A DNA stretch of 64,000 bases from an uncultured Acidobacteriota bacterium. GTDB taxonomy: Bacteria > Acidobacteriota > Thermoanaerobaculia > UBA5066 > Gp7-AA6. Positions 19,951 to 39,521 of the stretch are shown here, piece by piece; positions within the stretch are counted from its first letter, which is position 1, and every line of letters begins with the position of its first letter. A program made the position numbers and the translations under genes. The notes below the pieces were generated by a model. It worked only from the letters and a program-made list of their open reading frames with translations, was not told the origin of the DNA and ran no database searches. Where the stretch lies: positions 135,856-199,855 of the forward strand of contig CAVRXJ010000022.1 in assembly GCA_963725095.1 (NCBI GenBank). The letters run 5' to 3'.

Positions 19951-22900
19951 TCAGGGCAGGCTGAAGGTTCGGGAGAGGAAGACCGCCATCTCGCCCCGGG
20001 TCACCAGGCCGTCGGGGCAGTACTGGCCGCCGCCGCAGCCGCTGGTGATGCCCTCGCGGGAGAGCTCCTCGATCCAGTCTCCGAGGTAGGTTCCGAGCGG
20101 AACGTCGGTGAAGAGGTCGCCCGTCGCCGCGGGCGGATGGTAGCCGGCGGGATGCTTGGCCCGAAGGAGGAAGACGGCCATCGACGCGCGGCTGACGAGC
20201 GCGTCGGGACAATACTCCGTCGCGCTGCAGCCGCTCGTGATGCCTTCGCGGGCGAGCTCTTCGATCCAGGCGCCGAGGTAGGTTCCCAGCGGCACGTCGG
20301 TAAAGAGGTCACCCGTCGCGGCCGGCGGATGATAGCTTCCGCCGTTCTTTCCCCGCAGCAGGAAGACCGCCATGCTCGACCGGTTCACCTGGTCGGCCGG
20401 GCAGTAGTTTCCGAGGCTGCATCCAGAAGTGATCCCGGCCCGGAAGATCTTCTCGATCGCCTTATGGTACGGATGGGGAGTCGGCACGTCGGAAAAATCC
20501 GCCATGTACGCGCGCAGCAGCTCGCCGCTCTGTCCGTCGGGGTTGCTCGTCACGACGTCGTTGAGCGTTCCGGGCGGCAGGGGAGGAGCCACCGCCGAGA
20601 TCGCGGTCGGACCCGAGACGACCACGTCGCCCGCAGGCACGCCGCCAATCAAGACGGTGGCGCCGGCTTCGAAGTTGTCACCGGTGGCCGTGATCGTCAT
20701 CGCTCCGGAGGCGGGCCCCGAGGTCGGCACGATCGCGGCCAATTCGGGTGCGCAGAGCACGACAGTCGTTCCAGCAACCGCCGTGTTGTTGGACGCGCCC
20801 GGGTCGCTCGTCGCAGCCGACACGGAGACCGCCGCGGTGACCGAACCCTCGTTGGCCGGCGCCGTTGCGGAGAGGACGATGGCCGGCGCGTCTCCCACGT
20901 CGAGGCTCATGCGCGAGCAAGTGACGGGGGTTGAGCCAGCGCAGCTCCACCCGTCTCCGGAAGATGACAGCAGCGAGGCGCCTGCGGGAAGAGTTGCCGT
21001 CACCGACACGGACGACGCCACGGTCGGCCCCGCATTGTGAGCCGTCAGTGTGTACGTCAGACTACCTCCGGCACAGGCTTCCGACGGCGAGGGCCCTGCG
21101 GAGATCGAGAGGTCCGCCGCGCGGTACGTGGCTCCGTACGTCGCCGGAGACGCGCCCGCCACGATTCCGTGGCTCGCCGTGCCGCCGTCGGACCAGAAGG
21201 CGAACCCGTAGGGAATCCCGCCCAGGCGTCTGCGTCGGTGAGGCTTGGATTGTCACCTCGGAGCCGACGATGACGGTCTGGACGAACGGCGTCGTGCCCC
21301 CCCCGGTGGCCACAGTCAGCGGCATTCCGGACGGGTTCGATTGGAAGGTCAGCAACACGGTCTGCGGGTTGAGCGCCACGGTCTTGGTGTGCGTGAGACC
21401 GTTCGAGTTGATCGCCGTCAGCTTCAGCTCGAGGGAGGACGGGTACTCGTGGTCGGGCGCCGAGAACGATCCGCTGGCGACTCCTGGAAATGTCTGAACG
21501 GTATGGGTGTGGCAGTTGGCCGGGCAGTGCCGGATGAGGAGCGTCCACGACAGGGCGGAGGCGGGCAGGGTGCCATCCTGCGGGTCCGTCGCATGGCCCG
21601 AAAAGGTGATCGTGTCCCCGACTTTCCAGATGAGGGTCGGCGAGGGCGAGTCGATCGTCGCGGTCGGGGAGACGCCGCCGACGACGACCGTCAGCGGGTC
21701 GCTCACCGCCGATACGCCGTGATTGTCGGTCACACGGAGCGCGCGCCGTGTGAGAGCCGGGCTGCGTGTAGACGAAGGTCGGACTGATCAGCGTCGAGTC
21801 TTGGTAGGTCCCTTCATCCTCGAAGTCCCAGGCATATGTGATCGTGTCGCCGGGCCGCGCGGCGTGGGACCCGGAACCGTTGAACTGCACCGTGAGCGGG
21901 GCCGATCCGGAAAGGGGAGCCGCCGTCGCCATGGCCGTGGGCGCAAAGCTCTGGACGCGCCGGATCGTGCCTCCGCCGTGGTCTGCATAATACAGGTCAC
22001 CGCCCGGCCCAATCTGCAGGTCAACGGGCGTCGCGGCCCCGGCGATGAAGGTTGCGCGGGTCGACGGCACCGGCTTGCCCTGCGCGTCGGGAAACATGAC
22101 CCAGATGCACTGGCGCGAATAGTCGCCAAAAAACAGTGCCCCTTCGTAGCTCGCCGGGTAGCTGCCCGTACCGTAGAAAGCAAGGCCGGAAATCGACGAG
22201 CTACCTGTCGGACAGGTCTCGCCGGAGACGACCTTGCTGGTGTGCGCGTACTTGTAAGACGGGCTTATGACCCCGCTGGATGAGTTGTAGAGGTTGTTGC
22301 AGAGCGAGAGGTTGGCCGCCTGGTAGCCGGCCTGCGGGGCGGCGCCCTCGTAACACGGCCAGCCGAAGTTCGCCACCGGCGAACCGGTCGGATTGGCGAG
22401 CTGATTGATCTCTTCCCACGAGCCCCAGCCCACGTCGCCGATCCAGAGTGATCCGGTTCCCGGTTGTATCGTGAAGCGGAACGGATTGCGCAGGCCGTAC
22501 GCCACGACGCGCTGCGCGATCGGGTCGGTGCTGCGCAAAGAGCGGGTTGTCCGGAAGGGCATTGCCGTTGCCGTCCACGCGCAGGATGGCGCCATTGGTC
22601 AGGACCGGGCCGCCGGCGGCGCGCAGAAGGCTCTGGCTGCGCAGCGAACCTCCTTCGGCATCGGGCGATGCCAGCGGAGTTCCGACGGGCAGGGGCGGGT
22701 CTCCCAGGGGATTCTTGGGAATGCCGAACTGCCCGTAGTCCACGTTGTTGAAGCTGGAGCCATCGCCTCCGCTGACGTAGAGGGAACCATCGGGCCCGAA
22801 GTGCAGGTCGCCGATCGAGTGGCTGGGGAACTGCTGGCCCCAGGCTTCGAGGAGGACCTCCTCCACGCCGGTCATCACGCTTCCGGCGGCGGTCAGGCGC

Positions 22901-23334
22901 GACAGGCGTCCGCTGATCACACAGCCGTTGGCCGTGCCGGGCGGATTGGGGCAGCCGTCGTTCCAGGTCGGCGCGGTGCCCCCGATGGGCGCGTCATAGC
23001 TGTAGAGCACATAGACGTAGGGCGTCGTCGGAAAGTTGGGGTGCAGCGCGAGGCCGAGAAGCCCCCGATCCCAGTAGTCATCGATCTCCGTGCGCAGGTC
23101 CGCGAAGATCGTCGGCGTCGGAGAGGAAAGGCTCTCGAAGACCTTGATGAGACCGCTTTTTTCCGCGACGAAGACCCGTCCGTCCGACGCGAACCGCACG
23201 GCGGTGGGGCGGGTCAATCCCGAGAAGACGATCGTCTCCTGGAATCCCGGAGGCAGCGTCGCGGCACCCGTCTTGATCGCCTGGAAAAAGGCGAGCAGGA
23301 CGGCCGCCGCGAAGATGGTGCGGCGCGATCTCAT
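19951..23334 (-). CDS. Secreted multidomain protein: PQQ-dependent sugar dehydrogenase-like beta-propeller, PKD, Ig-like, DUF11-like, IPT/TIG and three Cys-containing SLH-like repeats; 3 frameshifts (near 22540, 21740, 21215)
   Basis: MRSRRTIFAAAVLLAFFQAIKTGAA signal. SGDH-like strings LPPGFQETIVFSGLTRPTAVRFASDGRVFVAEKSG, GLLGLALHPNF, YGLRNPFRF. PKD APLTVQFNGSGS..YAWDFEDEG. LTYTLTAHNAGPTVAS (DUF11-like). IPT, then 3x F.DVP....WIEEL.REGITSGC...YCP. Ends ...FLSRTFSLP. Confidence 0.8.
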
Positions 23335-23382
23335 TGGCCCTCGGAAATCATCCTTCGTTTCGCCCGGACGCTGCAAAGCAAA

Positions 23383-24150
23383 CTACGACCCGAACTCCCG
23401 CGGTTGTCCAGATTTTGACGGTTTCCGGCGAAATCGACCCTGAATTCTATCCCTCACGGGGGCCCCGCCTGACCCTCGATAGTCGCCCGGAGCGCGTGCG
23501 CTATCCGACAGGCGGGAAAGGGTTTCCGACAGCTCCCGACGGGAGGCCGCGAGGCCCTCGGCCAGGCCGTTTCGCTCCCGGATTCCCACGGCCTCGCGCA
23601 GTGCCGAGGTGCTGCGGGAGAGGTGCTCCTGCGCCCGCCCGGGCTCGAGCTCCGAGAGGCGCCGCAGGGCAAGCCCCATGTTGTGCAGGGTCACCCCCCG
23701 GGCGATCTCCCGCTCCGGGGTCCGCCAGACGAGGGCCTCGAGGAAGAGGCTGACGGCCTCCTGGAGCTCGGTGCCCGTGCGGCCGAGGTTCGAGAGCGCC
23801 GTCGCCAGGTTGTGGAGCGCCCGGGCCCTCCACCCGTCTTCGGCGTGCGCGGCGAAATGCTTGAGCGCCGCTGCGAAGCAGATGCGGGCGCGGGAAAGAT
23901 CGGCCGCCGGTCCCGGGCTACCGTAGAAGACGCCGGCGTTGTGGAAGAAGCGGGCCTGCGCCTCGGTCGAGTCGAAGGTGAATCCCGGCAGCGCCTCCCA
24001 GAGGTCGTCGGCGAGCAGGCGCGCGGTGTCCTCGTCGCCCCGCTCTCGCAATTCTTCCTGCGCGCGGAACCACTCGCGATAGGCCGCGGTCGGCGAACCG
24101 GCGAACGCCCCGCGAAAGTGTTCGAGGAGTTGCGAGATCCCGTCGTCCAC
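23383..24150 (-). CDS. TPR-like hypothetical protein (last gene of the 27.0-23.4 kb operon); 3' end uncertain
   Basis: GTG 24150 lies 5 nt after the upstream stop. Helical-repeat strings ALHNLATALSNLGRTGTELQEAVSLFLEAL and VTLHNMGLALRRL. The C-terminal ~35 aa overlap the promoter region of the next gene and may be read-through. Confidence 0.55.
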   Translation of the reverse strand: MDDGISQLLEHFRGAFAGSPTAAYREWFRAQEELRERGDEDTARLLADDLWEALPGFTFDSTEAQARFFHNAGVFYGSPGPAADLSRARICFAAALKHFAAHAEDGWRARALHNLATALSNLGRTGTELQEAVSLFLEALVWRTPEREIARGVTLHNMGLALRRLSELEPGRAQEHLSRSTSALREAVGIRERNGLAEGLAASRRELSETLSRLSDSARAPGDYRGSGGAPVRDRIQGRFRRKPSKSGQPREFGS

Positions 24151-24155
24151 GGGCC

Positions 24156-25238
24156 CTAGCCGCGCGGCGTCCGGGTGGGAGTCGGCGTTTCTTCCTCGTA
24201 ATAGACGCCGGGCTTCCGCGTCGGGCCGGCGGTCGGCTCGCTCGCGGCCGGCCGGGGACGGGACGTCGGGCGCGGCGTGAGTGTCGGAGGCGGCGGGGGA
24301 GTCGGCCGCTCGGGAGTCGGCGTGTCGGTCGCGGTCGGCGTGGGAGTGGGCGTCGGAGACGGCGTCGGGGTCGCCGTGGGCGTCGCGGATGCGGTCAGGA
24401 GCGCGCGGGCCGTCTGCGTCCTTCCTTTCGGGAGGGGTGTCGGAGGAATCCTCTCGCCGAAGATGACGACGGGTCGCTTGATGGTCGGCGTCGGCGGAGC
24501 GGTCGGTCCCGCGGCCGCAGGCGCAGGCGGCGGCGCGGCGGACGTCGGTCCGGGGGTTGGCGGCCGGGCGATGGTCGGGGCCGGAAGCGGGAACGTGGGT
24601 GTCGGCGGTCGCGTGATGGTGGCCGGAACGGGGAACGTCGGTGTGGGCGGACGCGTGATCGTCGCCACCGGAGCCGCCTGCGGCTCCGCAACCGGAGGCG
24701 CTGGTGTCGGCGGCCGGGTGATCGTGGCGGCCGGAAGCGGGAACGTCGGCGTCGGCGGTCTCGTGATCGTGGCCGGCACGGCCGCCTGTGGCGCCGAGAC
24801 GGGCGGGGCCGGTGTCGGCGGACGAGTGATCGTCGGCGGCGGAGGCGGAGCCGTCGCGGGTGGCGGCACGGGGGTGGGCGGGAGCGTCATCGTGGGCGGC
24901 GGAGCCGGGGCTGCAGCCGCGGCGGGAATCTTCGTCGGCGCAGGCGTGGGCGGCCGTGTGGGAGTAGCAGACGGGGCCGCCGCGACAGGCGCGGCAGGAA
25001 TCGCGGTCGCCGCCGTCGGCGCGGGAGTCGGCGGCCGCGTGGGCGTGGCAGCCGGCACAGCGGGAGCCGGCGTCGCTTTTTGCGGGGCTTTCGTCGGAGC
25101 CGCCGACGGAGCCGGCTCCGGAGCGGCTTTCGGCGTCGGTGTCAGGAGCCTCGCGACGATGACCTGCGTCGGGTGGCAGGCCCCCGCGGGGATCGTCAGG
25201 GCGGCGAGCAGCAGCGTCCGCGCGAGGGTCTTTCTCAT
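24156..25238 (-). CDS. Pro/Thr/Ala-rich repeat protein with signal peptide (possible lipoprotein)
   Basis: MRKTLARTLLLAALTIPAGAC then ~330 aa of low-complexity sequence with eight T[PI][TA]RPPTP units. Short non-repetitive patch IKRPVVIFGERIPPTPLPKG. Codon frame supported by the mirrored Gly-rich antisense ORF. Confidence 0.6.
   Translation of the reverse strand: MRKTLARTLLLAALTIPAGACHPTQVIVARLLTPTPKAAPEPAPSAAPTKAPQKATPAPAVPAATPTRPPTPAPTAATAIPAAPVAAAPSATPTRPPTPAPTKIPAAAAAPAPPPTMTLPPTPVPPPATAPPPPPTITRPPTPAPPVSAPQAAVPATITRPPTPTFPLPAATITRPPTPAPPVAEPQAAPVATITRPPTPTFPVPATITRPPTPTFPLPAPTIARPPTPGPTSAAPPPAPAAAGPTAPPTPTIKRPVVIFGERIPPTPLPKGRTQTARALLTASATPTATPTPSPTPTPTPTATDTPTPERPTPPPPPTLTPRPTSRPRPAASEPTAGPTRKPGVYYEEETPTPTRTPRG
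24549..25046 (-). repeat. In-frame tandem coding repeats (TITRPPTPTFP[LV]PA-type units)
   Basis: Protein residues 78-243 of the 25277 ORF numbering. Units TPTRPPTPAPT x2, TITRPPTPAPPV..PQAA x2, TITRPPTPTFP[LV]PA x3, TIARPPTPGP. Confidence 0.7.
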
Positions 25239-25297
25239 CGTGTCAGGCGCGAAGCATACCGCGGCTGGCGGGGTCAACCGAGGCGTTTAAGGTGCGG

Positions 25298-26402
25298 TTA
25301 CTCCCGGAAGTAGCCGTGCAGGTTGTGCAGGGCCTGGCGGTCGATCTTGCGGCGGCGCAGGGACTCGCGCAGCAGCGCGAGCGCGGCGAATCCCTCGGGG
25401 ACCATCTGCTCTTCGTCGATGATCGGCAGCGCCGCGCGGACCTCCCACTCGGCCTGGGCGTCCTGCTCGGTCTGGAGCAGCGCGTCGGCCAGCACGAGGT
25501 GGATTGCGGCGGCGTCGCCCCGCATGCCGACCTGCTCGGCGTCGCGGACGGCTTCGCGGTAGGCGTCGATCGCCTCGATCGGCTTGCCCTGCTCGCGGAG
25601 GATGTCGCCGACGCACCAGCGCAGCTTCACGAGGCCGACCTGGCTGTCGGACCTCTTCAGGAGGTCGAGCGCCTGGCGCGCGTAGTCGAGCGCGGCCTGC
25701 GGGTTCGCCCTGGAGGCGGTAGAGCTGCGCGAGGTTGTTCGCCGCGGGGGCGAGGAGCTTCAGGTCGCCTCCGACCTGCGCCTCCCCGTAGACTTCCCGG
25801 AAGACCTCGGCCGCCTTCGAGAAATCGCCCGTTTCGCGGCAGGCGATGCCTTCGAGGAATCGGCACTTCGAGGCCTCGTCGAAGAGGCCGAGCTTGCGCG
25901 AGCTCTCGGCCCAGACGGGAGCGAGCTCCAGGACCTCGTCGAAACGTCGCTCTTCCATCGCGAGGGCGAGCTTCTGGTAGGCGAGGCGCGCAAAGTGCAC
26001 GCTGGGGTTGGCGACGCGAACGAAGTTCGACTCGGCGCGGTCGAACCAGCGTCGGGCCTCATCGCGCCGGAAGAGGATGCGGTTCGCGCCGCCGGCCAGC
26101 AGCGCGAGCTCGCCCAGGAAGTACTCGCGCTCGTCGAACTCGCCGATCTTGCGGACGGGGCGGGCGAGGAATCCGTAGAAGAACTCCGCGTCTTCGGCGA
26201 CGACGGCCGGTGCCGTCTCGATGCGCCGGGTGAGGGCCTCGCAGAGGGCCAGCAACACCTCGGGATGCTCGAAGCGCAGCTCCCGCACGCGCTCGGCGCG
26301 CTCGCTGATCGGGACGTCGAGGACGCGCTCGGCGGCGGCGCGCCCCTCCTGCACGGAGACGCTCTCGTGGAGCGCGGGGAAGCGGACGAGCTCGCCCCTC
26401 AA
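25298..26402 (-). CDS. TPR-repeat protein of unknown function, one frameshift near 25700
   Basis: The proposed TTG start 26402 overlaps the upstream TGA (TTGA). ORF 25287..26567 frame (…NNLAQLYRLQG) continues in ORF 25298..25630 (…GDILREQGKPIEAIDAYREAVRDAEQ). Repeated TPR-like helices. Confidence 0.6.
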
Positions 26403-26782
26403 GAGTCCTCCTCCGAGCCCGCTTCCGGGGGCTTCGGCTTCTCGAGGCCCCGCTCGATCTCGATGGCGATGACTTCGGGCCCGAGTGTGAGGGAGCGCGT
26501 GAGGCGGTCGTCCTCCGCGAGCAGGTCCTCGAGCCGGGAGATCGAGTAGACGTGCCCGGCCCGGCAAGCCATCAGGAGCAACTCGGAGCGCAGAGACTCC
26601 GGCCGACGGCTTCCCGGTCGCCGACAGAATCGCTGGAACCAGTCGTAGAGGCGCTGCTCGACTTCCGTGGCTTCCTTGGGCGGAAGCCGGTAGTTCGTGA
26701 CGAGGGCCCTCTCGATCAGCGGCAGGATCTGCCCGAAGACCGAGGCGGCCTCCTTGTTGCGTCCGGTGAAGGTCGAGGACAT
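26399..26782 (-). CDS. Hypothetical protein, faint resemblance to sigma-70 region 2 only
   Basis: ATG 26782 (TTG 26791 also in frame). ILPLIERALVTNYRLPPKEATEVEQRLYDWFQRFCRR...LRSELLLMACRAGHVY loosely mimics ECF sigma region 2.1-2.4 spacing. No region 4. Acidic tail. Confidence 0.5.
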   Translation of the reverse strand: MSSTFTGRNKEAASVFGQILPLIERALVTNYRLPPKEATEVEQRLYDWFQRFCRRPGSRRPESLRSELLLMACRAGHVYSISRLEDLLAEDDRLTRSLTLGPEVIAIEIERGLEKPKPPEAGSEEDS

Positions 26783-26882
26783 GGAGCTCAACCGGGTCCT
26801 TCCGGGTGAAGTCCCTGTCTTCGTCGGGCGCTCTCGGCGCCAGATGGCGAAACGCTTCGAAGTCGTCGCAAGAGTCGTTCGA

Positions 26883-26999
26883 TCAGAACGGGATGTGACT
26901 CTGAACCTTGATCGGAAACGGCTTTTCCGCCGGCTTGGGCGCCGGAGTCGGCTGAGGCTGTGTCTGGACCTGCGCGCTCTGAGTGGAATTGGAACCCAT
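26883..26999 (-). CDS. Unannotated 38-aa ORF (MGSNSTQSAQVQTQPQPTPAPKPAEKPFPIKVQSHIPF)
   Basis: Below the 60-aa cutoff of the ORF track. ATG 26999 preceded by AAAGGAG with 8-nt spacing, ~95-nt leader from a near-consensus promoter, TGA at 26885-26883. First cistron of the operon. Confidence 0.45.
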   Translation of the reverse strand: MGSNSTQSAQVQTQPQPTPAPKPAEKPFPIKVQSHIPF

Positions 27000-27090
27000 G
27001 GCTGGAATCTCCTTTCGCGTAAAGAAACGAATATCCACCTACCCCGGGACTTGAGAAAAAGTGAAACTCACCAGGACAGAAACTGGCCAA

Positions 27091-27118
27091 ATCATACGCC
27101 TGCGACGTCCGCCGTCAA
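27091..27118 (-). promoter_or_regulatory. Putative sigma-70-type promoter (TTGACG-N16-TATGAT) for the small ORF/unknown operon
   Basis: The minus strand reads aaaaagtgcTTGACGgcggacgtcgcaggcgTATGATttgg. Located in a locally AT-richer 190-bp gap. Confidence 0.4.
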
Positions 27119-27192
27119 GCACTTTTTGACGCCGGCGGCCCTCCGGACGCTCGCCGGAGCGGCAAGTGCCCTTTCGTCAGTGCTTTGAGTCC

Positions 27193-30100
27193 TCACGGCA
27201 GGGAGAATGTCCTCGCCAGAAAGGCCGCCATTTCGCCCCGCGTGGTCGTCTTGTTCGGACAGAAATCGCCGCCCCCGCATCCCACCGGTGATGCCTTCGT
27301 GCAGCAGCTGCTCGATCCAGCGCGCGAATGGGTCGCTCGCCGGCACGTCATCGAAGAGCCCGACGGCGGCCGGCGGCTGGTAGCTGCCGCCGTGCTTGGC
27401 GCGCAGGAGCATCACCGCCATCGAGGCGCGGTTGACCACGGCGCCGGGCAGTAGTTGCCCATCCCGCAACCGGTGGTGATCTGTTCCGTCAGGAGCTGCT
27501 CGATCCACGGCGCCCCGAAGGCGTCGGCGGCGACGTCGCCGAAAGCCGTTCCGGTCGCCGGCGGCGGGCGCGAACGACGACCCGTGCTTTCCCCGCAGCA
27601 GGAAGATCGCCATCTGGTCCCGCGTGACCGCCGCGTCCGGGCAGTAGCTTCCGGCGTTGCAGCCCGTGGTGATCCCCGCGCGGAAGATCTTCTCGACGGC
27701 GTTGTGGAAGAGCTGGCTCGGCGGGACGTCCAGAAAATCCGCCATCCACGCCTTGGGGAGCGTTCCGCCGCAGGCGTCGGGGTTGCCGACGACGACGTCG
27801 TTGAGAGTCCCGGGAGAGAGCGCGGGCGTCGTCGCCGTGATCTGTGTCTCGCCGGGCACCGCGACGCTGCCGGCGTCGGCGCCGCCGATCGCGAGCGTCG
27901 CGCCGGTCTGGAAATCCTTGCCGGCGATCGTCACGGCGGTTCCTCCGGCGGCGGGGCCCGAGCGCGGCGAGATGGAAGCGGGAGCGGGCAGCACGATCGC
28001 GAACGCCGTGACGAATGCGTCCGTCGTTCCGCCGAGCGTGTCGTCGGCGGGATCGGCGGTCGGGAAATCGCTCGAGCTCGTTTGCCCGGCGACGAAGTCG
28101 TTGCCCGCTCCGTCGAGCGCGACGCCGTACGCCGCGTCGGTGCCGGCGCCTCCGAGGTAACTCGCGAACGAAAGGCCGGCCGGTCCCGGGATCGGAGGGG
28201 CGGATCATCGCGAAGAAGGCGTCGTAGCCGCCGCCGCTGCCGGGCTGCAGCGGACAGGTGCGCTGCGGGAAATCGCCGGAGACGGTGAACCCGGAGACGT
28301 GGGCGACGCCCTGCGCGTCGAGCGCGAGGCCGAAGCCCTCGTCGTCGTTCGAGCCGCCGAGGTACGTCGCGTAGAAGAGCGCCGCTGCCCCGGCCAGGTC
28401 CGGGTCGATCCTCGCGAAGTGGGCGTCGAAGACGCCGCCGAACGTGCGCTGGACGGCGTCGGGCGTCGTCGCGAGCGCGTCGGAGCTCGTCGTGCCGATG
28501 ACCGCGAGCTTGCCGTCCCCCTCCGCGAGGATCGTGTAGCCGTCGTCGTAGCCGGCCCCGCCGAGGTAGCTCGAGAGGAGCAGGCCCGATCCCGCGGCGT
28601 CGAAGAGCGAGACGAAGCCGTCGTAGCCGCCGCCCGTCTCCTCCTGGAACGGGCTCTCCGTCGGAAAGTCGGTCGAGGCCGTCCGCCCGGTCACCGCGAG
28701 GACGCCGCCCGGGCCCCGTGCGATGCCGAACCCCTGATCGTCGCCGCTTCCGCCGAGGAAGGTCGAGAAGACGAGGGACGCCGCGCCGGACTTCGACGTG
28801 TCCAGGCGCGCGAGGAAGGCGTCGCTCGACGGCGTCGCAGGCGCCGTCGGTGCCGCAGGATTCGTCGAGGACGCCGGCCGTGCTCGGGAAATCCGCCGAG
28901 TAGGTCTGGCCGGTGATCCAGGCGTTGCCGGAGTCGTCCACGGCGACGGCCCAGGCGCCGTCGCCGTTGGAGCCGCCGAAGTAGGTCGCGTAGAGGAGCG
29001 ACGAGCCGTCGGCGCCGAGCTTGGCGAGGAAGCCGTCGGCGCCGATGCCCGCCGCCGAGCCGAACGCGGTCTGGTAGGCGCCGGCGGTGGTCGGAAATTC
29101 CGCGCGGGCGATCCCCGCGACGTAGGCGACGCCCGCGCCGTCGACGGCGATGCCGACGCCCACGTCGTCCCCGGTTCCGCCGAGGTAGGTCGCGTAGACG
29201 AGGGATTCGGCACCGGTCTGCGACGGATCGATCTTGGCGACGAAGGCGTCGCTCGCCGCGCTGTCGCAGTTGCCGTCGGAGCCGCAGTCCGCGTCGATCG
29301 GACCGACCGTCGGAAAGTCCGTCGAGAGCGTCGAACCCGGTCACGTAGGCCTTGCCGGAGGCGTCGGCCGCGATCGCGTAGGCGATGTCGTCGCCGCCGC
29401 CGCCGAGGTAGGTCGATTCGAAGATCCGCGTGTCCACGAGCAGGGCGCGCGCGATGAGTCGTAGCCCCGGGGAAATGTGAGGCCGATGCTCCCGTCGGCG
29501 TGGACGGCGCGGCGCGCCATCCTCCGCGAGCTCCGATCTCCCGCGCCTTCCTGCCAGGCCTCGGGCTCGCCTGCCGCCGCTTCGGGTCGCGTTTTCGCGC
29601 TCCGGTCGCGCAGGCGCCATCGGATCAGCGACGGGTCGACTCCGGGCGCGACGACGAAAGTGCTCCGGATCGTTCCGCCGGCGCTCTCCAAGCGCAGGTC
29701 GATTCCGGGATAGAGCCCGCGGTAGAGGAGCCCGCGATAGGCGGGCAGCCCCGAACGCCAGCGTGCCGGATTGCTGCCGCGCAGGTAGCTGATCTTCGCG
29801 GCGATCGGATCGATTCCGGATACGGCCGGGTCCGGCTGCGCGCCTTCGAAGGAAATCGCGCCCAACCGAAACGGCCTCGCGTGCGGGCCTGCCTCGAGAC
29901 GTCGAGCCGCGTCCCGCTCGCCGGGGCGGAAAGGGCCGGCGTCGCCGCGCGCGGCGTCATCCAGATGATCTGCCCGGACGTGAAGAGCACCGTGCGCCCG
30001 GCGATCGCCGCCTGGAAGCGGATGTCCGGCCCGTCTGTCCGGCGTTGGGAACGAAGAAGGCCGGGATCTTCGCGGCGTTCTCAGCCGGCGCGAAGGTCCC

Positions 30101-30214
30101 GCTCTTCAGGTTCGCCGCGCCCGCCGGAAAGGGAGCCGCGAGGACGAAGGAGCAGACCGCCGCGGCCAGAAGGGCCCGAATCTGGGAGGGAATGCGGGGA
30201 TCGAGACACGACAC
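27193..30214 (-). CDS. Secreted SBBP beta-propeller-repeat protein with C-terminal IPT/TIG and three Cys-containing SLH-like repeats; many frameshifts
   Basis: Candidate GTG 30214 next to GGAGG. Signal IRALLAAAVCSFVLAAPFPAGAA. N-domain IPAFFVPNAGQT...ISYLRGSNPARWRSGLPAYRGLLYRGLYPGIDL. Repeated YATYLGGS..D.G.GIA.D..G.A.V.G.T.S.DFP units spread over ORFs 28691, 27931 and 27489. IPT GPAAGGTAVTIAGKDF. 3x SLH-like, ending GEMAAFLARTFSLP with TGA at 27195-27193. Confidence 0.75.
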
Positions 30215-30485
30215 ACCTCCTCGTGGAAACGGGTTGAGGGATCGCGCGGTGTCGGAAAGTGCGCGGGACCTGGACGATTCGCTTTCGATCCTGACGGGTG
30301 GGGTACCCCGGATCCGGACGCCGTCGCGACGGACACCCGTCGATGCGAGCCGACGTTCCATGCTCCTCCGCTCGGAGCGCGCCGATTTGTCTGTTGATTC
30401 CCGAGCGGAGGGTCTAGGGGAAGACGCGAACGGGTCCTTCCGCTGGATCCAGGCTCGGGATCCGACCGCCTATTGTAGCGCCGTC

Positions 30486-32086
30486 CTAGAGGGTGCGGAC
30501 GAAATCCGCCGCGTCCTGACGCCAGACCGTAACCCCGCAGAAACGCTCCCCTTCGGGGCAGACCGGGCGGACCCCCGCGTGGTGCCGCAGCGTGCAGGGC
30601 GGCAGGAGCCAGGGCCCGATGCGGGGGTTGACCTCGCGGATCTGCAGGGTCTCGTCGAGCGAGGCGCGCCAGATCTCTTCCTGGGCGTTGTAGCAGAGGC
30701 GCATGGCGAACTTGTGGTGGAGGTTCAGGAGGTCGGCCGACTCGGTGAAACGGATCGCCACGGCGTTGGGCAGGAGGTAGGCGGCGTGCTCGTCGGAGAC
30801 GCCCCGCTCGCGCAGGCGGCGGATCGCGTCCCAGGTCTCTTCCATCGTCGTCCGGTAGAGCTCGCGCCGCTTCCGGAATCTCGGGGAGCAGCATGGGCAC
30901 GACGTAGTCCGGCTCATCCGAGAGGTACGCCGGCAGCGCCGGCCGCGAGCCCGGTGTCATCCGGTGCCGCTGGTCCTGGCTGTCGGCCGTGTGGGAGAGC
31001 TTCTTGCGGAAGGTGTACGACGGGTGGAACATCGCCCGCGAGAGCTTTCCGTGCGTCGGTCAGGGTGAGGGTCTCGCCGAGCAGGCGGTTCCTGGCGGGG
31101 TCGAGCACGAGGCGGATCGCCTCGTCGTCGGAAAGGGACGCGCGCGGCAGGCCCAGGATCTCGCGCACCGCGGAGGCGAGCACCTCCTCGTTGTTGGCCT
31201 TCCAGTCGACCAGCCGCGAGACGCGCCCTCCAAGCTCCTCGTCGAACTCGCGCCGAAACGCGGCGGCGCTCGCGCGGGGCGCCCGCAGAGACTGAAAGAT
31301 CTCGTACTCGGGAGTTTCTTCGAGCGGGATCGGATCCTGCAGCACGGCCGCGTAGAGCGGGTCGTGGCGGAGGACTTCCTCCACCATCTGGCCGACGACC
31401 TCGCGCTGCTCGGCCGGCGCGTCGAAGGACTCGCAGAGCCGCCAGTAACGGAACAGCGTGATTCCGGAGATCGTGTGGTACAGGTAGGCGAACGTTGCGA
31501 CCGGCAGGACGTAGCGCGCGATTTCCTGCGCGCGCTTCTGCACCGCGCCGGCAAACCTCGCGCGGCCGTCGCCCCGGGTGCGGCCCGGAAAGATGCCGAA
31601 GTACCGCTCCCCGGCGGCGGGCGTCAGCAGCTCCGTCAGGCGCCGGTAGGCCTCCTGCTGGCGCCGGGCCTGCCGCTCGTAGATCTCCCGCTCGGCCGCG
31701 CCCATGGCCGGGATCGCATACGTGCCGGGCTTGACCTCGACGTAGCGCTGCGAGACCTGCTCGGAGTTGTAGAAGGGGTGGCTGTGGAGGAAAGTCCAGA
31801 GGAACTGCCGCGAGACGTTCTCGAGGGCGAACTGGAAGTGCGCGTGCTGGAACGTCGTGTGGTGGCCCGCCTCGTAGATCGAGCGCGCGAGCGCGTCGCG
31901 GCGCTCCGGCCGCGCGGACGCCTGATCTTCGGTGATGATCCCCTTGGAGGAGTAGCAGGTGCGCGCCGTCGCGACGACGTTCTCGAAGGGCCGCTCGAAC
32001 GCGTGGACGAGGCGAACCTTCGGAGGCGGCGAAGAGAAGGCGAAGGTGCGCCCGCCAACTGGGAGACTCGACATCGAGTCCCTCAT
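30486..32086 (-). CDS. Two-domain ThyX-like (FAD-dependent thymidylate synthase family) protein, two frameshifts (near 31040 and 30890)
   Basis: Domain 1: GHHTTFQHAHFQFALENVSRQFLWTFLHSHPFYNSEQVSQRYV (ThyX pattern with RHR replaced by HSH). Domain 2: SYTFRKKLSHTADSQDQRHR. Tail ...LNLHHKFAMRLCYNAQEEIW. Pieces in ORFs 30914, 30106 and 30486. Confidence 0.8.
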
Positions 32087-32200
32087 TGTAGTCGTGTTTC
32101 AATCTGCGCCGGCAGAGGACAGCGCCGCTCTGCGTGTGATCGCTGGCTCCGATGTCCGGGCCTGACGGGAGTAGAGTCCTGGAGGGGAGCGAGAGAAGCC

Positions 32201-33052
32201 ATGTCCCTCGAAGGGTCGATGGAAGAACAGGCGGACTCGCGCCTGCTCGAGGCGGCGCGGCGAGGAGATGCGCCGTCGCTCGAGGCCCTGCTCGAGCGAC
32301 ACCAGGCGCAGGTGTACCGCTTCGGGATGAAAATGTGCCGGGATCCGGAGGATGCACGGGACGTCTTGCAGGACACCCTGCTCGCAGTGGCAAAAGGCGT
32401 TCGGGACTTCCGGGGCGCGTCCTCGATCTCGACGTGGCTCTATTCGATCGCCCGAAGCTTCTGCATCAAGAAGAGGCGGCGAAGCAAGTTCGCCCCGCAA
32501 GCGGAGGGCTCTCTCGATGGGGACGCGGCGTCTGAGGCGGCGCGGCTGACGGAGCCAGGCCAGAACCCGGACGAACTTCTCGCCGGCAAAGAGGTCCGGC
32601 ATGCCCTCGAGGAGGCAATCGGCGCGCTCGATCCCATGTACCGCGAGGTTCTGCTGCTGCGGGACGTCGAGGGTCTGTCGGCGTCGGAGGTCGCCGAGGT
32701 GCTCGGCGTGAGCGTGCAGGCGGTGAAGAGCCGGCTGCATCGCGCGCGGCTTTCGGTGCGCGAGTACATTGCGCCGTTGCTCGGAATTGGGCGGCAGCCG
32801 GGAGCCGCGTCGCCCGGAACCTGCCCCGACGTGCTCGACCTCCTTTCGCGGCATCTCGAGGGCGAGATCAGCGCGCAGGTCTGTGTCGAGATGGAGCAGC
32901 ACGTCGAAGCCTGTGCCCGCTGCCGTGGCGCCTGCGAGTCACTCAAGAGCACCCTCGCCCTCTGCCGCACGAGCCCGGCCCTGCCGGTGCCTCGCGCGGT
33001 CCAGGATGCGGTCCGCGTCGCGGTCCGGAACTTCCTGTCCGAGTCGGCCTGA
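32201..33052 (+). CDS. ECF sigma-70 factor fused to a C-terminal ZAS-type zinc-finger (anti-sigma-like, Cys-rich) domain
   Basis: Region 2 (DARDVLQDTLLAVAKGVRDF..STWLYSIARSFCI) and region 4 (EVLLLRDVEGLSASEVAEVLGVSVQAVKSRLHRAR). Then CPDVLDLLSRHLEGEISAQVCVEMEQHVEACARCRGACESL with the H-x3-C-x2-C motif. No TM segment. Confidence 0.85.
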   Translation: MSLEGSMEEQADSRLLEAARRGDAPSLEALLERHQAQVYRFGMKMCRDPEDARDVLQDTLLAVAKGVRDFRGASSISTWLYSIARSFCIKKRRRSKFAPQAEGSLDGDAASEAARLTEPGQNPDELLAGKEVRHALEEAIGALDPMYREVLLLRDVEGLSASEVAEVLGVSVQAVKSRLHRARLSVREYIAPLLGIGRQPGAASPGTCPDVLDLLSRHLEGEISAQVCVEMEQHVEACARCRGACESLKSTLALCRTSPALPVPRAVQDAVRVAVRNFLSESA

Positions 33053-33084
33053 ACCCTTTCCGCCACGGCCGGCTCTCACCAGGC

Positions 33085-33489
33085 ATGGAGGCCAGAAGGG
33101 CGACGGTCCAGGTAACTGAGGAGACTTTCAGCGCGACTGTTCGAGAGGGCATCGTGATCCTCGACTTCTGGGCCGCGTGGTGCGGACCGTGCAGGGCGTT
33201 CGCACCGGTTTTCGACGCCGCCGCGGCCCGGCACCCCGACGTCGTGTTCGGGAAGGTCGACACGGAGGCCGAGCCCGGGCTCGCCGCCGCATTCGATGTG
33301 CGGGCGATCCCGACGCTCATGGTGTTGAGGGAAGGCGTGCTGCTTGCCGCGCAGCCCGGAGCGATGACCGGCGCGGCGCTCGACGAGCTCGTCGAAAAGG
33401 TGCGGGCACTCGACATGGACGAGGTGCGGCGAGGCCTCGACGCCGAGCGGCCGGCCACCGGGGAGGCCACGGAGCCGGAGGGCATCTGA
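33085..33489 (+). CDS. trxA: Thioredoxin
   Basis: Intact 134 aa. Active site FWAAWCGPCR, IPTLMV cis-Pro loop. ~25-aa acidic C-terminal extension. 32 nt downstream of the sigma gene. Confidence 0.9.
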   Translation: MEARRATVQVTEETFSATVREGIVILDFWAAWCGPCRAFAPVFDAAAARHPDVVFGKVDTEAEPGLAAAFDVRAIPTLMVLREGVLLAAQPGAMTGAALDELVEKVRALDMDEVRRGLDAERPATGEATEPEGI

Positions 33490-33917
33490 TGGAAGGCGCC
33501 CACGCGGAGAAGGCGCCTGGACGATTCCCGCCACGGCGGTGTTGAGGCCGGTCGGGCGCTTGTCGCTGCCGGCCGGGGCAAGGTTCGGGTAGCGGCGCAA
33601 GCCCTCGACCATGGGCTGATCGCCCGCGGGTGCCGCTCCGCGTGAGAGCGCAGAAGATTCCGGGCCTTCCTTCCCAGAAAGCCCGAACCCTTTTCGCGCC
33701 GCTGGGCTCGTACCCGATATGGACAACGGGATCGGACTCGTGGCGTTGCTCGCGATCTGGATCGTTCTCCAGGTCTGGGTGCTGCCGAAGCTCGGGGTGC
33801 CCACTTGAACGGCGCCCGCAGCGCGCCGGTCGGCGCGCAGGGAAGGTCAGGGGGACAAGCCCGATCGGGATGCGTTGCCGTGAGTTCCACACGTCCCTCC
33901 GACTCGGCGATGAAGCG

Positions 33918-35207
33918 ATGAAGCTCGTCACGCTTCTCGTTTTCCTTGCGGCGCCGGAATCACTGACGCTGCAGGAAGCCGCATCCCTGGCGGCGGCCGG
34001 GGCCCCTTCCGTGGAGCGCGCCCGGGCCGAATCTGAGCGGGCGCGCGCATCGCAGTCCTCGGCGCACGCGGCGCTGGGCCCGGCTCTCTTCGGAGACTTC
34101 GGCTTCCTGTCCTCGAACAATCCCGTCACGGCCTTCTCCCTCGCGCTCGAGCAGCAGCGCTTCTCGGCGGAGGAGTTCTTCCGGTCGAATCCGAACGATC
34201 CGCCGTTCACGAAGGACTGGAGCGCGGGCGTGGCCGCCGCCTGGGAGATCGATCTCTTCGGCTCGGCGCGCGCCGCGGCCCGCGCGGCGGACAGCGCCGC
34301 CGAGGCGGCAGAGCGCGCGGCGCGGCGGACCGGGGACGGCGCGGCACTGCAGGCGATCGCGGCGTTCGTCGAAACGCGGCGGGCCGAGGAGACCCTGGCG
34401 ATCGTGGGAGAGCGGGAGGCTGATGCGCGCAAGGACGAGGCCCTGGCGCGCTCGCTCTTCGAGCAGGGCCTCACGACCTCCGCGGATTCCGCGCGGGCTC
34501 TTGCCGTCGTGGCCGAGGTCCGTGCCGAGGCAGCCGGCTTTCGCGCCGCGGCCGCGGTGTCCCGCGCGGCCCTGGCCACCCTGATCGGTGAGCAGGCCGC
34601 GGCGAGACCGCTGGCGCCGCTGCCGGCGCCTGCCGCCGCACCCGAGACTCCCGGGTCTCCGCGCGACGACGTCGCCGCGGCCGAGTTTGCCGCCGAGGCG
34701 GCGCACCAGGCCGCGCGGTCGGCGGACGCATCCCGGTGGCCGTCCCTCGTGGTGACGGGCCGTTACGAGCTGCACGCCCCGACTCCGGGCGGCCGGTACG
34801 GCGAATCGGGCACCGTGTTCGGGGGATTCCGAGTTCCGATCTTCGCTTCGGGCGCCGTCGCGGCGCGCGTGGCCGAGGCGCGGGCGCAGGCTCGGGCCGC
34901 GGAGGCGACGCTCTCGGAACGACGCCGGACGGCGCAGAGCGAAGTCGTCTCGGCCCGGGTCCGGGCCGAGGCCGCGACGGCGCGGCTGGCCGCCTTCGAG
35001 GAAGCGGAGTCGGCTGCCCGGCGCGCGCGCGAAATCCAGCAGGCGCGATACGAGGAAGGCGCCGCGAGCCTCTCGGATCTGCTCGAGACGCGCGCGGCGG
35101 AGCTTCGCGCGCGCCAGGGCGCAGTGGGAGCGGCGGCCGACCGGGTACTCGCGGAGGCGAACCTGCGCATGGCACTGGGGTTGCCGCCCATCGAGGAGAA
35201 CCCATGA
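33918..35207 (+). CDS. TolC-family outer membrane efflux protein
   Basis: ATG 33918 inside ORF 33630..35207. Short signal MKLVTLLVFLAAP. Two OEP-type helical repeats (LTLQEAASLA..., ...ARYEEGAASLSDLLETRAAEL..A...LAEANLRMALG). Confidence 0.8.
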   Translation: MKLVTLLVFLAAPESLTLQEAASLAAAGAPSVERARAESERARASQSSAHAALGPALFGDFGFLSSNNPVTAFSLALEQQRFSAEEFFRSNPNDPPFTKDWSAGVAAAWEIDLFGSARAAARAADSAAEAAERAARRTGDGAALQAIAAFVETRRAEETLAIVGEREADARKDEALARSLFEQGLTTSADSARALAVVAEVRAEAAGFRAAAAVSRAALATLIGEQAAARPLAPLPAPAAAPETPGSPRDDVAAAEFAAEAAHQAARSADASRWPSLVVTGRYELHAPTPGGRYGESGTVFGGFRVPIFASGAVAARVAEARAQARAAEATLSERRRTAQSEVVSARVRAEAATARLAAFEEAESAARRAREIQQARYEEGAASLSDLLETRAAELRARQGAVGAAADRVLAEANLRMALGLPPIEENP

Positions 35208-36247
35208 AACGGACGATTCTGGCGGCGCTCGGGGCCCTGCTCGCAGCCGGCTGCGCGCGACACCCTCCGGCGAACAAGCCCGAGGTGATTCGGACGCTGG
35301 CGACGGCCGTCGTCGAGCGGCGCGAACTGCCGGATCGCATCGAGATCGACGGCACGGTGATCGGCCGGCAGGAAGCGGTTCTTTCGAGCCGGCTCGCGTC
35401 GACGGTCGTGGAGGTCGCGGCAGTTCCCGGGCGGACCGTGCGGGCGGGAACCGTGCTGGTTCGGCTCGATCAGCGGGAGGCCGACGGGGCGCTCGAGAGC
35501 GCGCGCGCGGCTCTGCAAACCTCCGGTTCCGCGCTCGAGCTGGCCCGCCGCAACCGCACGCGCTACGAAAAGCTCGAAAGGCGCGGAGCCGCGGCGATCG
35601 TCGAGCTCGAGAGAGCGCGCCAGGACGAAGCGGCGGCGACGTCCGCGGTGGCTTCGGCGGAGGCGTCGGTGCGCCGCGCCGAGACGGACCGCGGTCAGGC
35701 GGTCCTGGTGGCCCCGTTCGACGCCATCGTGGTGGAGAAGATGGTCTCTCCGGGCGATCTGGCGGCGCCGGGACGCCCCCTGGTTCGCGTGGCGTCGGTC
35801 TCGGGGCGTCGCATCGAGGCCGCTCCCGGCGAGGAACAAGTGGCCTTGCTCAGGGAAGGGGACCCCGTGGAAGTGATCGTGGGCGGCCAGCGCCGGCTCG
35901 GCCAGGTGGCCGAGATCGTCGGCGCCGTCGATTCCGCCACACGCCGACGGACCGTGCGGGTGGACCTGCCGGCCGGCGAGAATCCACCCGTCGGCTCCTT
36001 CGCGCGGCTTCTGCTGCCGGGCCCCGCGCAACCGCGGCTGATCGTGCCGACGCGGGCCGTGAGGGAGCGCGGAGGGCTCGAGCTCGTCTGGGCGGTGACG
36101 CCCGAAGGTCTCGCAGACCTTCGCTACGTTCGCACGGGCGCCTCTCCACGAGGGCGGCCTCGTCGAAGTGCGCTCCGGGCTCGCCGCGGGCGAGCGCGTG
36201 GTCCTCGACCCGCCCTCCGACCTCGAAGCCGGCACGCGGGTCCGGTC

Positions 36248-36251
<4 letters not shown>
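35204..36251 (+). CDS. RND efflux periplasmic adaptor (MFP/HlyD family) lipoprotein, one frameshift near 36140
   Basis: ATGA overlap with the TolC stop. Lipobox LLAAGC. Coiled-coil plus barrel strings (VLVAPFDAIVVEKMVSPGDL, GSFARLLLPG). The end VEVRSGLAAGERVVLDPPSDLEAGTRVRS is in the +1 frame. Confidence 0.85.

Positions 36252-39521
<3,270 letters not shown>

Follow-up and report, generated by a model that had tools for sequence, protein, structure and literature searches.

What does a run of five genes without recognizable function do in the genome of an uncultured soil-phylum bacterium? The genes lie at positions 23383–27118 of a 64,000-nucleotide stretch of contig CAVRXJ010000022.1 from an Acidobacteriota bacterium of the class Thermoanaerobaculia (assembly GCA_963725095.1); this whole stretch, which has a G+C content of 70%, is referred to here as the window. 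An earlier note on this DNA had read the five as one operon of unnamed families behind a near-consensus promoter, with the shape of an envelope-signaling or surface module. An open reading frame (ORF) check finds all five ORFs, here p1 to p5, on the minus strand at the positions given in that note, and its view that the products belong to no nameable family stands, with p1, p2, and p4 lacking any Pfam or NCBIfam match and p3 showing generic tetratricopeptide repeats (TPRs) only. Comparison with relatives identifies a smaller unit, p1, p2, and p3, which are passed on as a set with an unvarying gene order and a conserved promoter of their own. The triad is probably an undescribed regulatory switch controlled by the peptide p1.

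We gathered 63 loci carrying a p2 gene, all of them in Acidobacteriota metagenome-assembled genomes (MAGs) or metagenome contigs, from species-representative genomes (14 loci, all Acidobacteriota MAGs), metagenome contigs (41 loci), and exact-protein look-ups, and scanned all of them with hidden Markov models (HMMs) for each part. Loci and proteins are cited below by our own L and P numbers. p1 was found in 54 of the 57 loci with enough upstream sequence for assessment and p3 in 56 of 59 assessable loci; wherever the triad is present its gene order is p1-p2-p3 without exception, and it is kept down to 28% p2 identity (L018). The surroundings differ even among close relatives: ThyX is the upstream neighbor in L001 and L024, the window and L021 have an SLH protein, and L002 has GDE. 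A search of plasmid and phage collections with p2 gave no match, and the module therefore does not look mobile. Conservation of the gene neighborhood, which the earlier note had proposed to check, thus holds strongly for p1-p2-p3, and its suggestion of an undescribed system is borne out for a set of genes that is conserved, unannotated, and driven by its own conserved promoter. The fixed five-gene unit did not survive: the conserved core comprises three genes, and p4 and p5 are confined to the clade with a p2 identity of 76% or more.

The sigma-70-type promoter, TTGACG-N16-TATGAT at 27091–27118 on the minus strand with an A-tract just upstream, had been placed correctly (27118 to 27091) and is the sole promoter-like match in 6.5 kb, against 0.2 expected from shuffled sequences. 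The form TTGAC[ATG]-N15/16-TATGAT, again with an A-tract before it, is shared by 12 close loci; the promoter spacer is 15 nt in L021, and L015 and L025 carry TTGACA-N19-TATAGT. A 5′ leader follows (27000–27090, minus strand), present as had been reported, with a length of ~85 nt rather than ~95 nt. It contains a block, CCCGGGGTAGGTGG.ATTCGTTTCT, kept within the close clade, and the Shine-Dalgarno sequence GAAAGGAG 8 nt before the p1 ATG; all listed loci have this sequence, or a version differing at one base, ahead of p1. Separately, the p3-p4 gap (25239–25297, minus strand) holds TTGACC-N13-TATGCT, which might give p4 and p5 a transcription start separate from that of the triad but whose spacer is too short for the rules of the promoter scan.

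The first gene, p1 (26883–26999, minus strand), encodes a hydrophilic peptide of 38 aa, MGSNSTQSAQVQTQPQPTPAPKPAEKPFPIKVQSHIPF. The 48 distinct versions that we recovered, 38–49 aa in length, share a conserved N-terminus, STQTVxVP, a Pro/Gln/Glu-rich middle linker of variable length, and a conserved C-terminus, [KR]P[RF]F[STP]I[KT][LIV]xxx[VI]Px. Across the three codon positions, divergence amounts to 0.16/0.20/0.33 for the whole peptide gene and 0.17/0.09/0.28 for its last 13 codons. Because third-position divergence exceeds that at the first and second positions, and because the 48 variants keep both ends, this pattern shows p1 to be a translated peptide under purifying selection that is strongest at the C-terminus. 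None of the 48 versions has an N-terminal hydrophobic segment, the sole hydrophobic stretch being the C-terminal FxIxL, and p1 has no match in Pfam, NCBIfam, or the PDB. Two metagenome proteins, P0030 (161 aa) and P0094 (163 aa), are apparent p1-p2 fusions; at the level of the protein sequences the join in P0030 falls at the p2 start codon and P0094 is without the first p2 helix. They may be real fusions or assembly artifacts, and neither protein is used as evidence.

p3 (25298–26402, minus strand), of 367 aa, has the architecture of a Rap protein. Its AlphaFold2 (AF2) model (pLDDT 89.7, pTM 0.87) contains 18 helices, four of them N-terminal and the remainder arranged as seven helix pairs. Pfam TPR_12 matches p3 at 3.9e-16; TPR_1, TPR_2, and others match as well, and in NCBIfam SctY and Ycf3 are among the weakly matching TPR chaperones or assembly factors. 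Foldseek ranks Rap receptors first, in alignments of ~370 columns that span the full length of equally long proteins: the pLS20 Rap with Phr* (E 1.4e-6), RapF with PhrF, RapJ, RapF-ComA, RapH-Spo0F, and the phi3T Rap in complex with its peptide (TMq 0.64, TMt 0.66). Behind these come LGN/Pins, APC5, and designed TPRs. A profile search likewise matches NprR, RapJ, and RapF co-linearly (E 1e-6 to 1e-4), placing query residue 178 against chain residues 180–184. In the predicted structure, seven TPR pairs thus follow a four-helix N-terminal domain, and Rap receptors are its best full-length structural matches. In Rap proteins, the N-terminal helical bundle binds partner proteins, and peptide bound in the TPR domain shifts that affinity (PMC9765709).

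Between p1 and p3 lies p2 (26399–26791, minus strand), an all-helical protein of 127–130 aa whose family has no match in Pfam, NCBIfam, PADLOC, or a PDB sequence search. Two starts can be considered: ATG at 26782 (127 aa) and TTG at 26791 (130 aa), 5 nt after GGAAGGA. Since GGAAGGA stands 5 nt before the TTG and relatives keep a GTG or TTG at this upstream position, the TTG start is, judged from these sequence features, the more likely one. The gap after the peptide gene, noted earlier as 92 nt, exists and measures 91 nt if p2 starts at the TTG and 100 nt if it starts at the ATG. The stop of p2 and the start of p3, a TTG at 26402, do share the TTGA noted at 26402/26399, and a 4-nt p2/p3 overlap is called in 7/7 gene-called relatives, an arrangement typical of genes that are translationally coupled. 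The 59-nt (p3-p4) and 5-nt gaps are also correct.

The p2 protein carries the motifs WFxRFxRRPGS, MACRAGHVY, and LGPEVIAxE, and across the wider family only one Cys and one Ala are invariant. Its 84 close homologs are all hypothetical proteins from Acidobacteriota, and from Thermoanaerobaculia wherever a class is given; the full HMM search returned 99 representatives at E<=1e-3. In some wider-family members the first p2 helices are fused to GerE/LuxR helix-turn-helix (HTH) domains (P0117, P0141) or to a domain X described below. The AF2 model has six helices (pLDDT 83, pTM 0.75), and a Foldseek search with it returned nothing significant, with a best E of 1.7 and the extracytoplasmic function (ECF) sigma factor CnrH at rank 10 (E 4.4, TM 0.42). 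We rejected a toxin-antitoxin or defense role for the triad, there being no PADLOC match and no mobile-element context. One orphan p2-family gene (L052 4950–5381, 40% identical), without p1 or p3, has as neighbors a multicopper-oxidase-like gene, a small Cys-rich ORF, and an ArsR-type regulator.

The earlier note had called p2 sigma-region-2-like. Sigma70_r2 (PF04542) was found in 0/47 p2-family members even at E<=10; the positive controls, a neighboring protein made of sigma region 2 alone and the window's own ECF sigma factor, scored 29.7 and 56.6 bits. A PDB profile search with p2 listed no sigma factor among its matches. With hhalign, p2 residues 8–47 align with regions 2.1–2.2 of the family of such region-2-only proteins at P 0.011–0.012 and a probability of 3.5–3.8%, with 24–33% identity over 36–38 columns in helices 1 and 2 only; this was seen with two different p2 alignments. 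Against a single sequence of that family or a thin ECF alignment the result was negative (probability 0.1–0.3%), and the likeness does not reach regions 2.3–2.4. p2 also has no Sigma70_r4 or HTH match that would indicate a sigma region 4; it ends directly after two acidic helices (LGPEVIAxE). For p2 itself the label is unproven, with no HMM or fold support and a weak hhalign signal. Genuine region-2-only genes do stand in the operons of many relatives, so that a connection with sigma biology is real by context.

These genes are part of what varies downstream of the triad. Among 40 loci that can be assessed, p4 and p5 follow in 14, a region-2-only (sigma2-only) gene with a second p3 paralog in 19, and neither in 7. 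The sigma2-only proteins are 100–135 aa long and consist of sigma-70 region 2 alone (PF04542 at 29.7 bits, cut-off 24). A search for the family yielded 304 proteins, one per 90%-identity cluster, with PF04542 in all 120 listed, and its profile matches the sigma2 structures of SigR, SigJ, and SigH in the PDB. The gene is followed by one for a p3 paralog of 476–492 aa with an extra N-terminal domain, X (X-p3), and X is weakly similar to the N-terminal domain of p3. Examples of sigma2-only (114–132 aa) plus TPR protein lie at L016 7547–9392, L020 5495–7431, L024 3078–4098, and L025 3333–5181; in L025 the X-p3 gene overlaps the sigma2-only gene, and in L024 it is cut off at the contig end. L024 carries this cassette, yet its p2 is 83% identical to that of the window. 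L022 carries a fusion of X with a p2-like domain beside a sigma2-only gene. No sigma4-only partner was found beside the sigma2-only genes of the relatives. An ECF plus ZAS-TPR gene pair in L022 was considered as a third paralogous module and rejected as an ordinary anti-sigma pair. In L017, short fragments of sigma2-only and X-p3 in several frames (7575–8196) lie downstream of an intact triad; such remnants suggest recent loss of the cassette.

From these elements we tentatively assemble a reading that is possible but far from secure: a conserved, self-contained, cytoplasmic module of three genes, to which two lineage-specific passenger genes have been added, in which p2 would be kept bound by p3, a Rap-like receptor whose ligand would be the p1 C-terminus. 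By analogy with Rap proteins, the N-terminal domain of p3 would hold the small helical p2, and the extended C-terminal segment of p1, [KR]PxFxI[KT][LIV]xxx[VI]Px, would sit in the TPR groove and change the hold of p3 on p2, so that the amount of p1 would set the level of free p2. Because p1 carries no export signal, such a switch would work inside the cell, for example by reading p1 synthesis or turnover, rather than in quorum sensing. The probable output is transcription linked to sigma-type factors, given that sigma2-only and X-p3 genes follow in 19 of the 40 assessable loci and that fusions join p2-like domains to X and to LuxR-type DNA-binding domains. The p2/p3 overlap, the fusions of X to p2-like domains or to p3, and the pairing of X-p3 with sigma2-only genes fit this proposal, and together they fit a family of small helical proteins with a link to transcription that are held by Rap-like TPR partners.

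Several observations weigh against this proposal. p2 has no demonstrable feature for binding DNA or RNA polymerase (RNAP) and no significant resemblance to sigma region 2; the operon in the window lacks a sigma2-only gene, the link to sigma factors coming from relatives. By sequence, the central repeats of p3 match generic TPRs (CTPR, LGN/Pins) better than Rap, and in the Foldseek search LGN and APC5 come close behind Rap, the Rap match being one of architecture. p1 has no secretion signal and does not adjoin p3, departing at two of five points from the signature of the RRNPP peptide-receptor systems considered below. Three p2 genes are orphans without p1 and p3 (L052, L053, L054), and all hosts of the module are uncultured.

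The alternative implied by the earlier note, a cryptic sigma/anti-sigma pair, would make p2 a diverged sigma region 2 that occupies the clamp helices of RNAP beta-prime as a decoy or as one half of a split sigma factor, p3 its anti-factor, and p1 an anti-anti-factor or accessory. A small gene followed by an overlapping larger partner is indeed the order seen in the sigma2-only and X-p3 pairs of the same operons, hhalign places p2 on regions 2.1–2.2 in the register expected by eye, CnrH does appear among the Foldseek matches, and p2-like domains are fused to LuxR/GerE HTH domains, which share the fold of sigma region 4. Split sigma factors have a precedent in SigO-RsoA (PMC7826278). The low hhalign probabilities, Sigma70_r2 and PDB profile searches that found no sigma factor, and a likeness that ends short of regions 2.3–2.4 speak the other way, as does the Foldseek result for p2 (best E 1.7, CnrH at TM 0.42); the true sigma2-only family, by contrast, readily retrieves sigma2 structures. 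The L022 arrangement, with a sigma2-only gene beside a p2-like domain, argues that these are different parts. We regard a sigma/anti-sigma pair as unlikely. If p3 were instead a non-regulatory chaperone or adaptor, it would serve as a scaffold that escorts or stabilizes p2 and p1, in assembly, proteolytic targeting, or storage, with the sigma2-only genes being clients or a coincidence. TPRs are generic scaffolds, LGN/Pins and APC subunits follow Rap among the Foldseek matches of p3, SctY and Ycf3 appear among the weak NCBIfam ones, and no protein of the triad has a DNA-binding domain. This explanation has to contend with a sigma2-only link that recurs in 19 loci, with p2-like domains fused to HTH regulators, and with a module that has its own promoter and stands outside any structural or secretion gene cluster, and appears to us quite unlikely.

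A purely cis-acting role for p1 deserves the same scrutiny. As a leader or arrest peptide, p1 would have no function in trans; ribosome stalling at its conserved C-terminus, together with a structured spacer, would control p2 and p3. p1 always lies directly upstream, behind a very strong conserved ribosome-binding site, and its constraint is strongest in the last ~13 codons, as in arrest peptides. The p1-p2 spacer (26792–26882, minus strand) is itself suggestive: directly after the p1 stop comes a box of ~25 nt, CGAACGACTCTTGCG.CGACTTCGA or CGAACGACTCTTGCGCCGACTTCGA, conserved at the same position among 12 loci, and then a GC-rich inverted repeat, GGCGCcgagaGCGCC in the window, whose sequence varies from locus to locus in these 12. 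RNAalifold on a MAFFT alignment of the spacer returned no consensus structure, leaving the structure putative, an Rfam scan of leader and spacer gave no match, no T-tract follows the hairpin in the window or in related loci, and in L016 and L017 the spacer shrinks to 32–38 nt. The N-terminal STQTVxVP of p1 is kept across clades as well, its last residue is variable, and the FxI[KT][LIV] pattern looks like a binding strand; we judge the leader-peptide explanation very unlikely. The five-gene envelope-signaling or surface module of the earlier note, for its part, has in its favor the predicted export of p4 as a Pro/Thr-rich lipoprotein and on the position of the operon between TIG/SLH and GSDH/PKD/SLH genes, the GSDH/SLH gene following p5 in 8 loci. 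With p4 and p5 absent where p2 is <=53% identical and in L024 at 83%, with an upstream SLH neighbor in only 3 loci, and with core proteins that have no signal peptide, membrane segment, or exported part, such a module would have only a clade-specific lipoprotein and the variable flanking genes to stand on, and is hardly credible.

The frame of p3 in the window required correction. The earlier note took p3 as a single ORF, but an extra base at 25706, a 1-nt insertion, breaks the frame: after ...LYRLQG, translation runs through Arg-rich junk up to 25287, and the true C-terminus lies in a separate ORF at 25298–25630. Removing one base at 25706 in silico restores the 367 aa. Contig L021, 96% identical, differs from the window at 25706 by exactly that base and carries an intact 367-aa p3 (P0181, 99% identical). 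The comparison of window positions 20761–36415 with L021 gave 36 gap openings in 11.4 kb, and the flanking TIG/SLH and GSDH/PKD/SLH genes, split by frameshifts in the window, are intact in L021 with 581 and 1212 aa, smaller than the giant exoproteins that the earlier note had described. Because L021 is intact, gap openings are this frequent, and the flanking genes are split as well, these alignments make an assembly error the most likely source of the p3 frameshift; a real lesion, with pseudogenization of p3, is less likely.

The two passenger genes belong to one clade only. p4 (24156–25238, minus strand) encodes a 360-aa Pro/Thr/Ala-rich repeat protein and lipoprotein candidate, with 8 copies of RPPTP plus TRF arrays. 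The earlier description of an exported low-complexity Pro/Thr protein holds at the level of prediction, the sequence combining a lipoprotein-type N-terminus with 31% Pro and 19% Thr; that N-terminus reads MRKTLARTLLLAALTIPAGAC in the window, with an atypical –3 residue (Ala), and ...LALTLPGC in L001. Orthologs, at 44–52% identity, occur only within the p2 range of at least 76% identity given above, and length varies, including a 54-nt in-frame indel relative to L021. p5 (23383–24150, minus strand), a helical protein, always accompanies p4. It measures 255 aa in the window versus 213–232 aa in 12 orthologs, and its tail differs from that of L021 by 17 nt of indels. p5 matches Pfam TPR_12 at E 0.017, below the cut-off, and showed no relationship to PDB entries, p3, or X-p3; the idea that it is a decayed copy of the alternative cassette was rejected, as it bears no likeness to X-p3 or p3. 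Both genes are missing at every locus with p2 <=53% identical and at L024. Because the GSDH/PKD/SLH exoprotein gene follows p5 in 8 loci, p4 and p5 may belong with that gene and not with the switch.

Two features near these loci are recorded for completeness. About 5 kb upstream of the operon, the plus strand of the window encodes a 283-aa ECF sigma factor (32201–33052; Sigma70_r2, r4_2) with a C-terminal zf-HC2 (ZAS-type anti-sigma) motif; the gene is also present in L021, where it adjoins a thioredoxin gene. In L002 (9552–12201) and L025 (5296–7603, minus strand), a DUF692 (MbnB/TglH) and DUF2063 (HvfC_N) pair is convergent with the triad. The adjoining ORF in L002 encodes a Cys/Gly/Lys-rich protein of 140 aa with repeated CxGKNSCKGKGGC units, and L025 has a 146-aa ORF there, so that by its gene content the cluster looks like a metal-binding peptide cluster or one of the type that makes ribosomally synthesized and post-translationally modified peptides (RiPPs). 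It was seen near these two loci, is absent at the others, and is convergent, hence not tied to the triad. A RiPP reading of the triad itself was rejected: no modifying enzyme is linked to it, and p1 lacks Cys.

Acidobacteriota are abundant in soil and poorly understood, nearly all carriers of the module are uncultured, and no entry in Pfam, NCBIfam, or the PDB matches p1 or p2, two of its three core proteins. If the proposal is correct, the peptide/TPR-receptor logic known from quorum sensing in Bacillus would also operate within the cell, as a switch, in another phylum, and a large set of stand-alone sigma-region-2 proteins with TPR partners (304 cluster representatives) would come to light. 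Taken at its widest, the triad would be the first peptide-gated, Rap-like TPR switch outside Bacillota, operating with an intracellular, non-secreted peptide, and together with sigma2-only and X-p3 would define a new control of transcription initiation in Acidobacteriota, in which half-sigma or sigma-mimicking small proteins are held by TPR receptors; we consider this joint claim, including the control that it describes, doubtful. Since p1, p2, and p3 are small and soluble, the proposal is directly testable in E. coli or in vitro.

Our literature search found nothing linking RRNPP systems with Acidobacteria and nothing relevant on sigma2-only proteins. A large survey of ECF sigma factors admitted a sequence only if it carried a sigma2 as well as a sigma4 domain (PMC7826278), so that its pipeline would have dropped sigma2-only proteins.

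Of the known systems, ECF sigma/anti-sigma pairs resemble the triad in their layout, the gene of a small helical protein leading into an overlapping one that encodes its larger partner, and true sigma region 2 proteins are found in the same operon in relatives. TPR domains are used to regulate ECF sigma factors (PMC7826278), and occur within anti-sigma factors or as extensions of the sigma factor itself, as in ECF42. The triad differs in that p2 is not detectably a sigma factor and has no region 4, p3 carries no known anti-sigma domain and no zf-HC2, unlike the ECF/ZAS-TPR pair in L022, and an extra peptide gene is present. SigO-RsoA divides sigma2 and sigma4 functions between separate polypeptides (PMC7826278) and is the closest precedent for the sigma2-only proteins beside the triad in relatives, which are stand-alone sigma2 domains. 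Unlike that system, the sigma2-only genes have no sigma4-only partner beside them, and the window itself has no sigma2-only gene. SigO-RsoA is not known to have a TPR protein or peptide. LGN/Pins shares with p3 a TPR superhelix of similar length (Foldseek E ~2e-5; profile ~1e-15 on the central repeats), its partners in the matched complexes, among them Inscuteable and NuMA as extended peptides, including FRMPD1 and Frmpd4 as well; it is eukaryotic, lacks the N-terminal four-helix domain, and gives a lower TM-score (0.41–0.48).

RRNPP systems are recognized by a small peptide of 10–100 aa, its secretion, a receptor of ~250–500 aa, TPRs in that receptor, and genes that are direct neighbors (PMC10075063). 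The lengths of p1 (38–49 aa) and p3 (367 aa) and the TPRs of p3 agree with this signature; p1 has neither a Sec signal nor a hydrophobic segment like that of SHP peptides, and p2 always lies between p1 and p3. Because the triad departs from the signature in these two of its five features, we do not file it as RRNPP. Measured against Rap-Phr in particular, p1 is hydrophilic, without a Sec or PptAB-type signal, and is encoded upstream, with p2 between it and the receptor gene; the operon encodes a third, dedicated partner protein, p2; the similarity of p3 to Rap in sequence is at the generic TPR level only; and the hosts are Acidobacteriota, whereas RRNPP systems are described in Bacillota, their plasmids, and phages. 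What the two have in common is a receptor of ~370 aa, predicted to be cytoplasmic in the case of p3, in which an N-terminal helical bundle precedes about seven TPRs, and a co-encoded peptide of ~40 aa (p1) whose conserved part is C-terminal. Rap itself acts by binding proteins, namely Spo0F and the DNA-binding domain of ComA, and not DNA, and its peptide alters that hold (PMC9765709).

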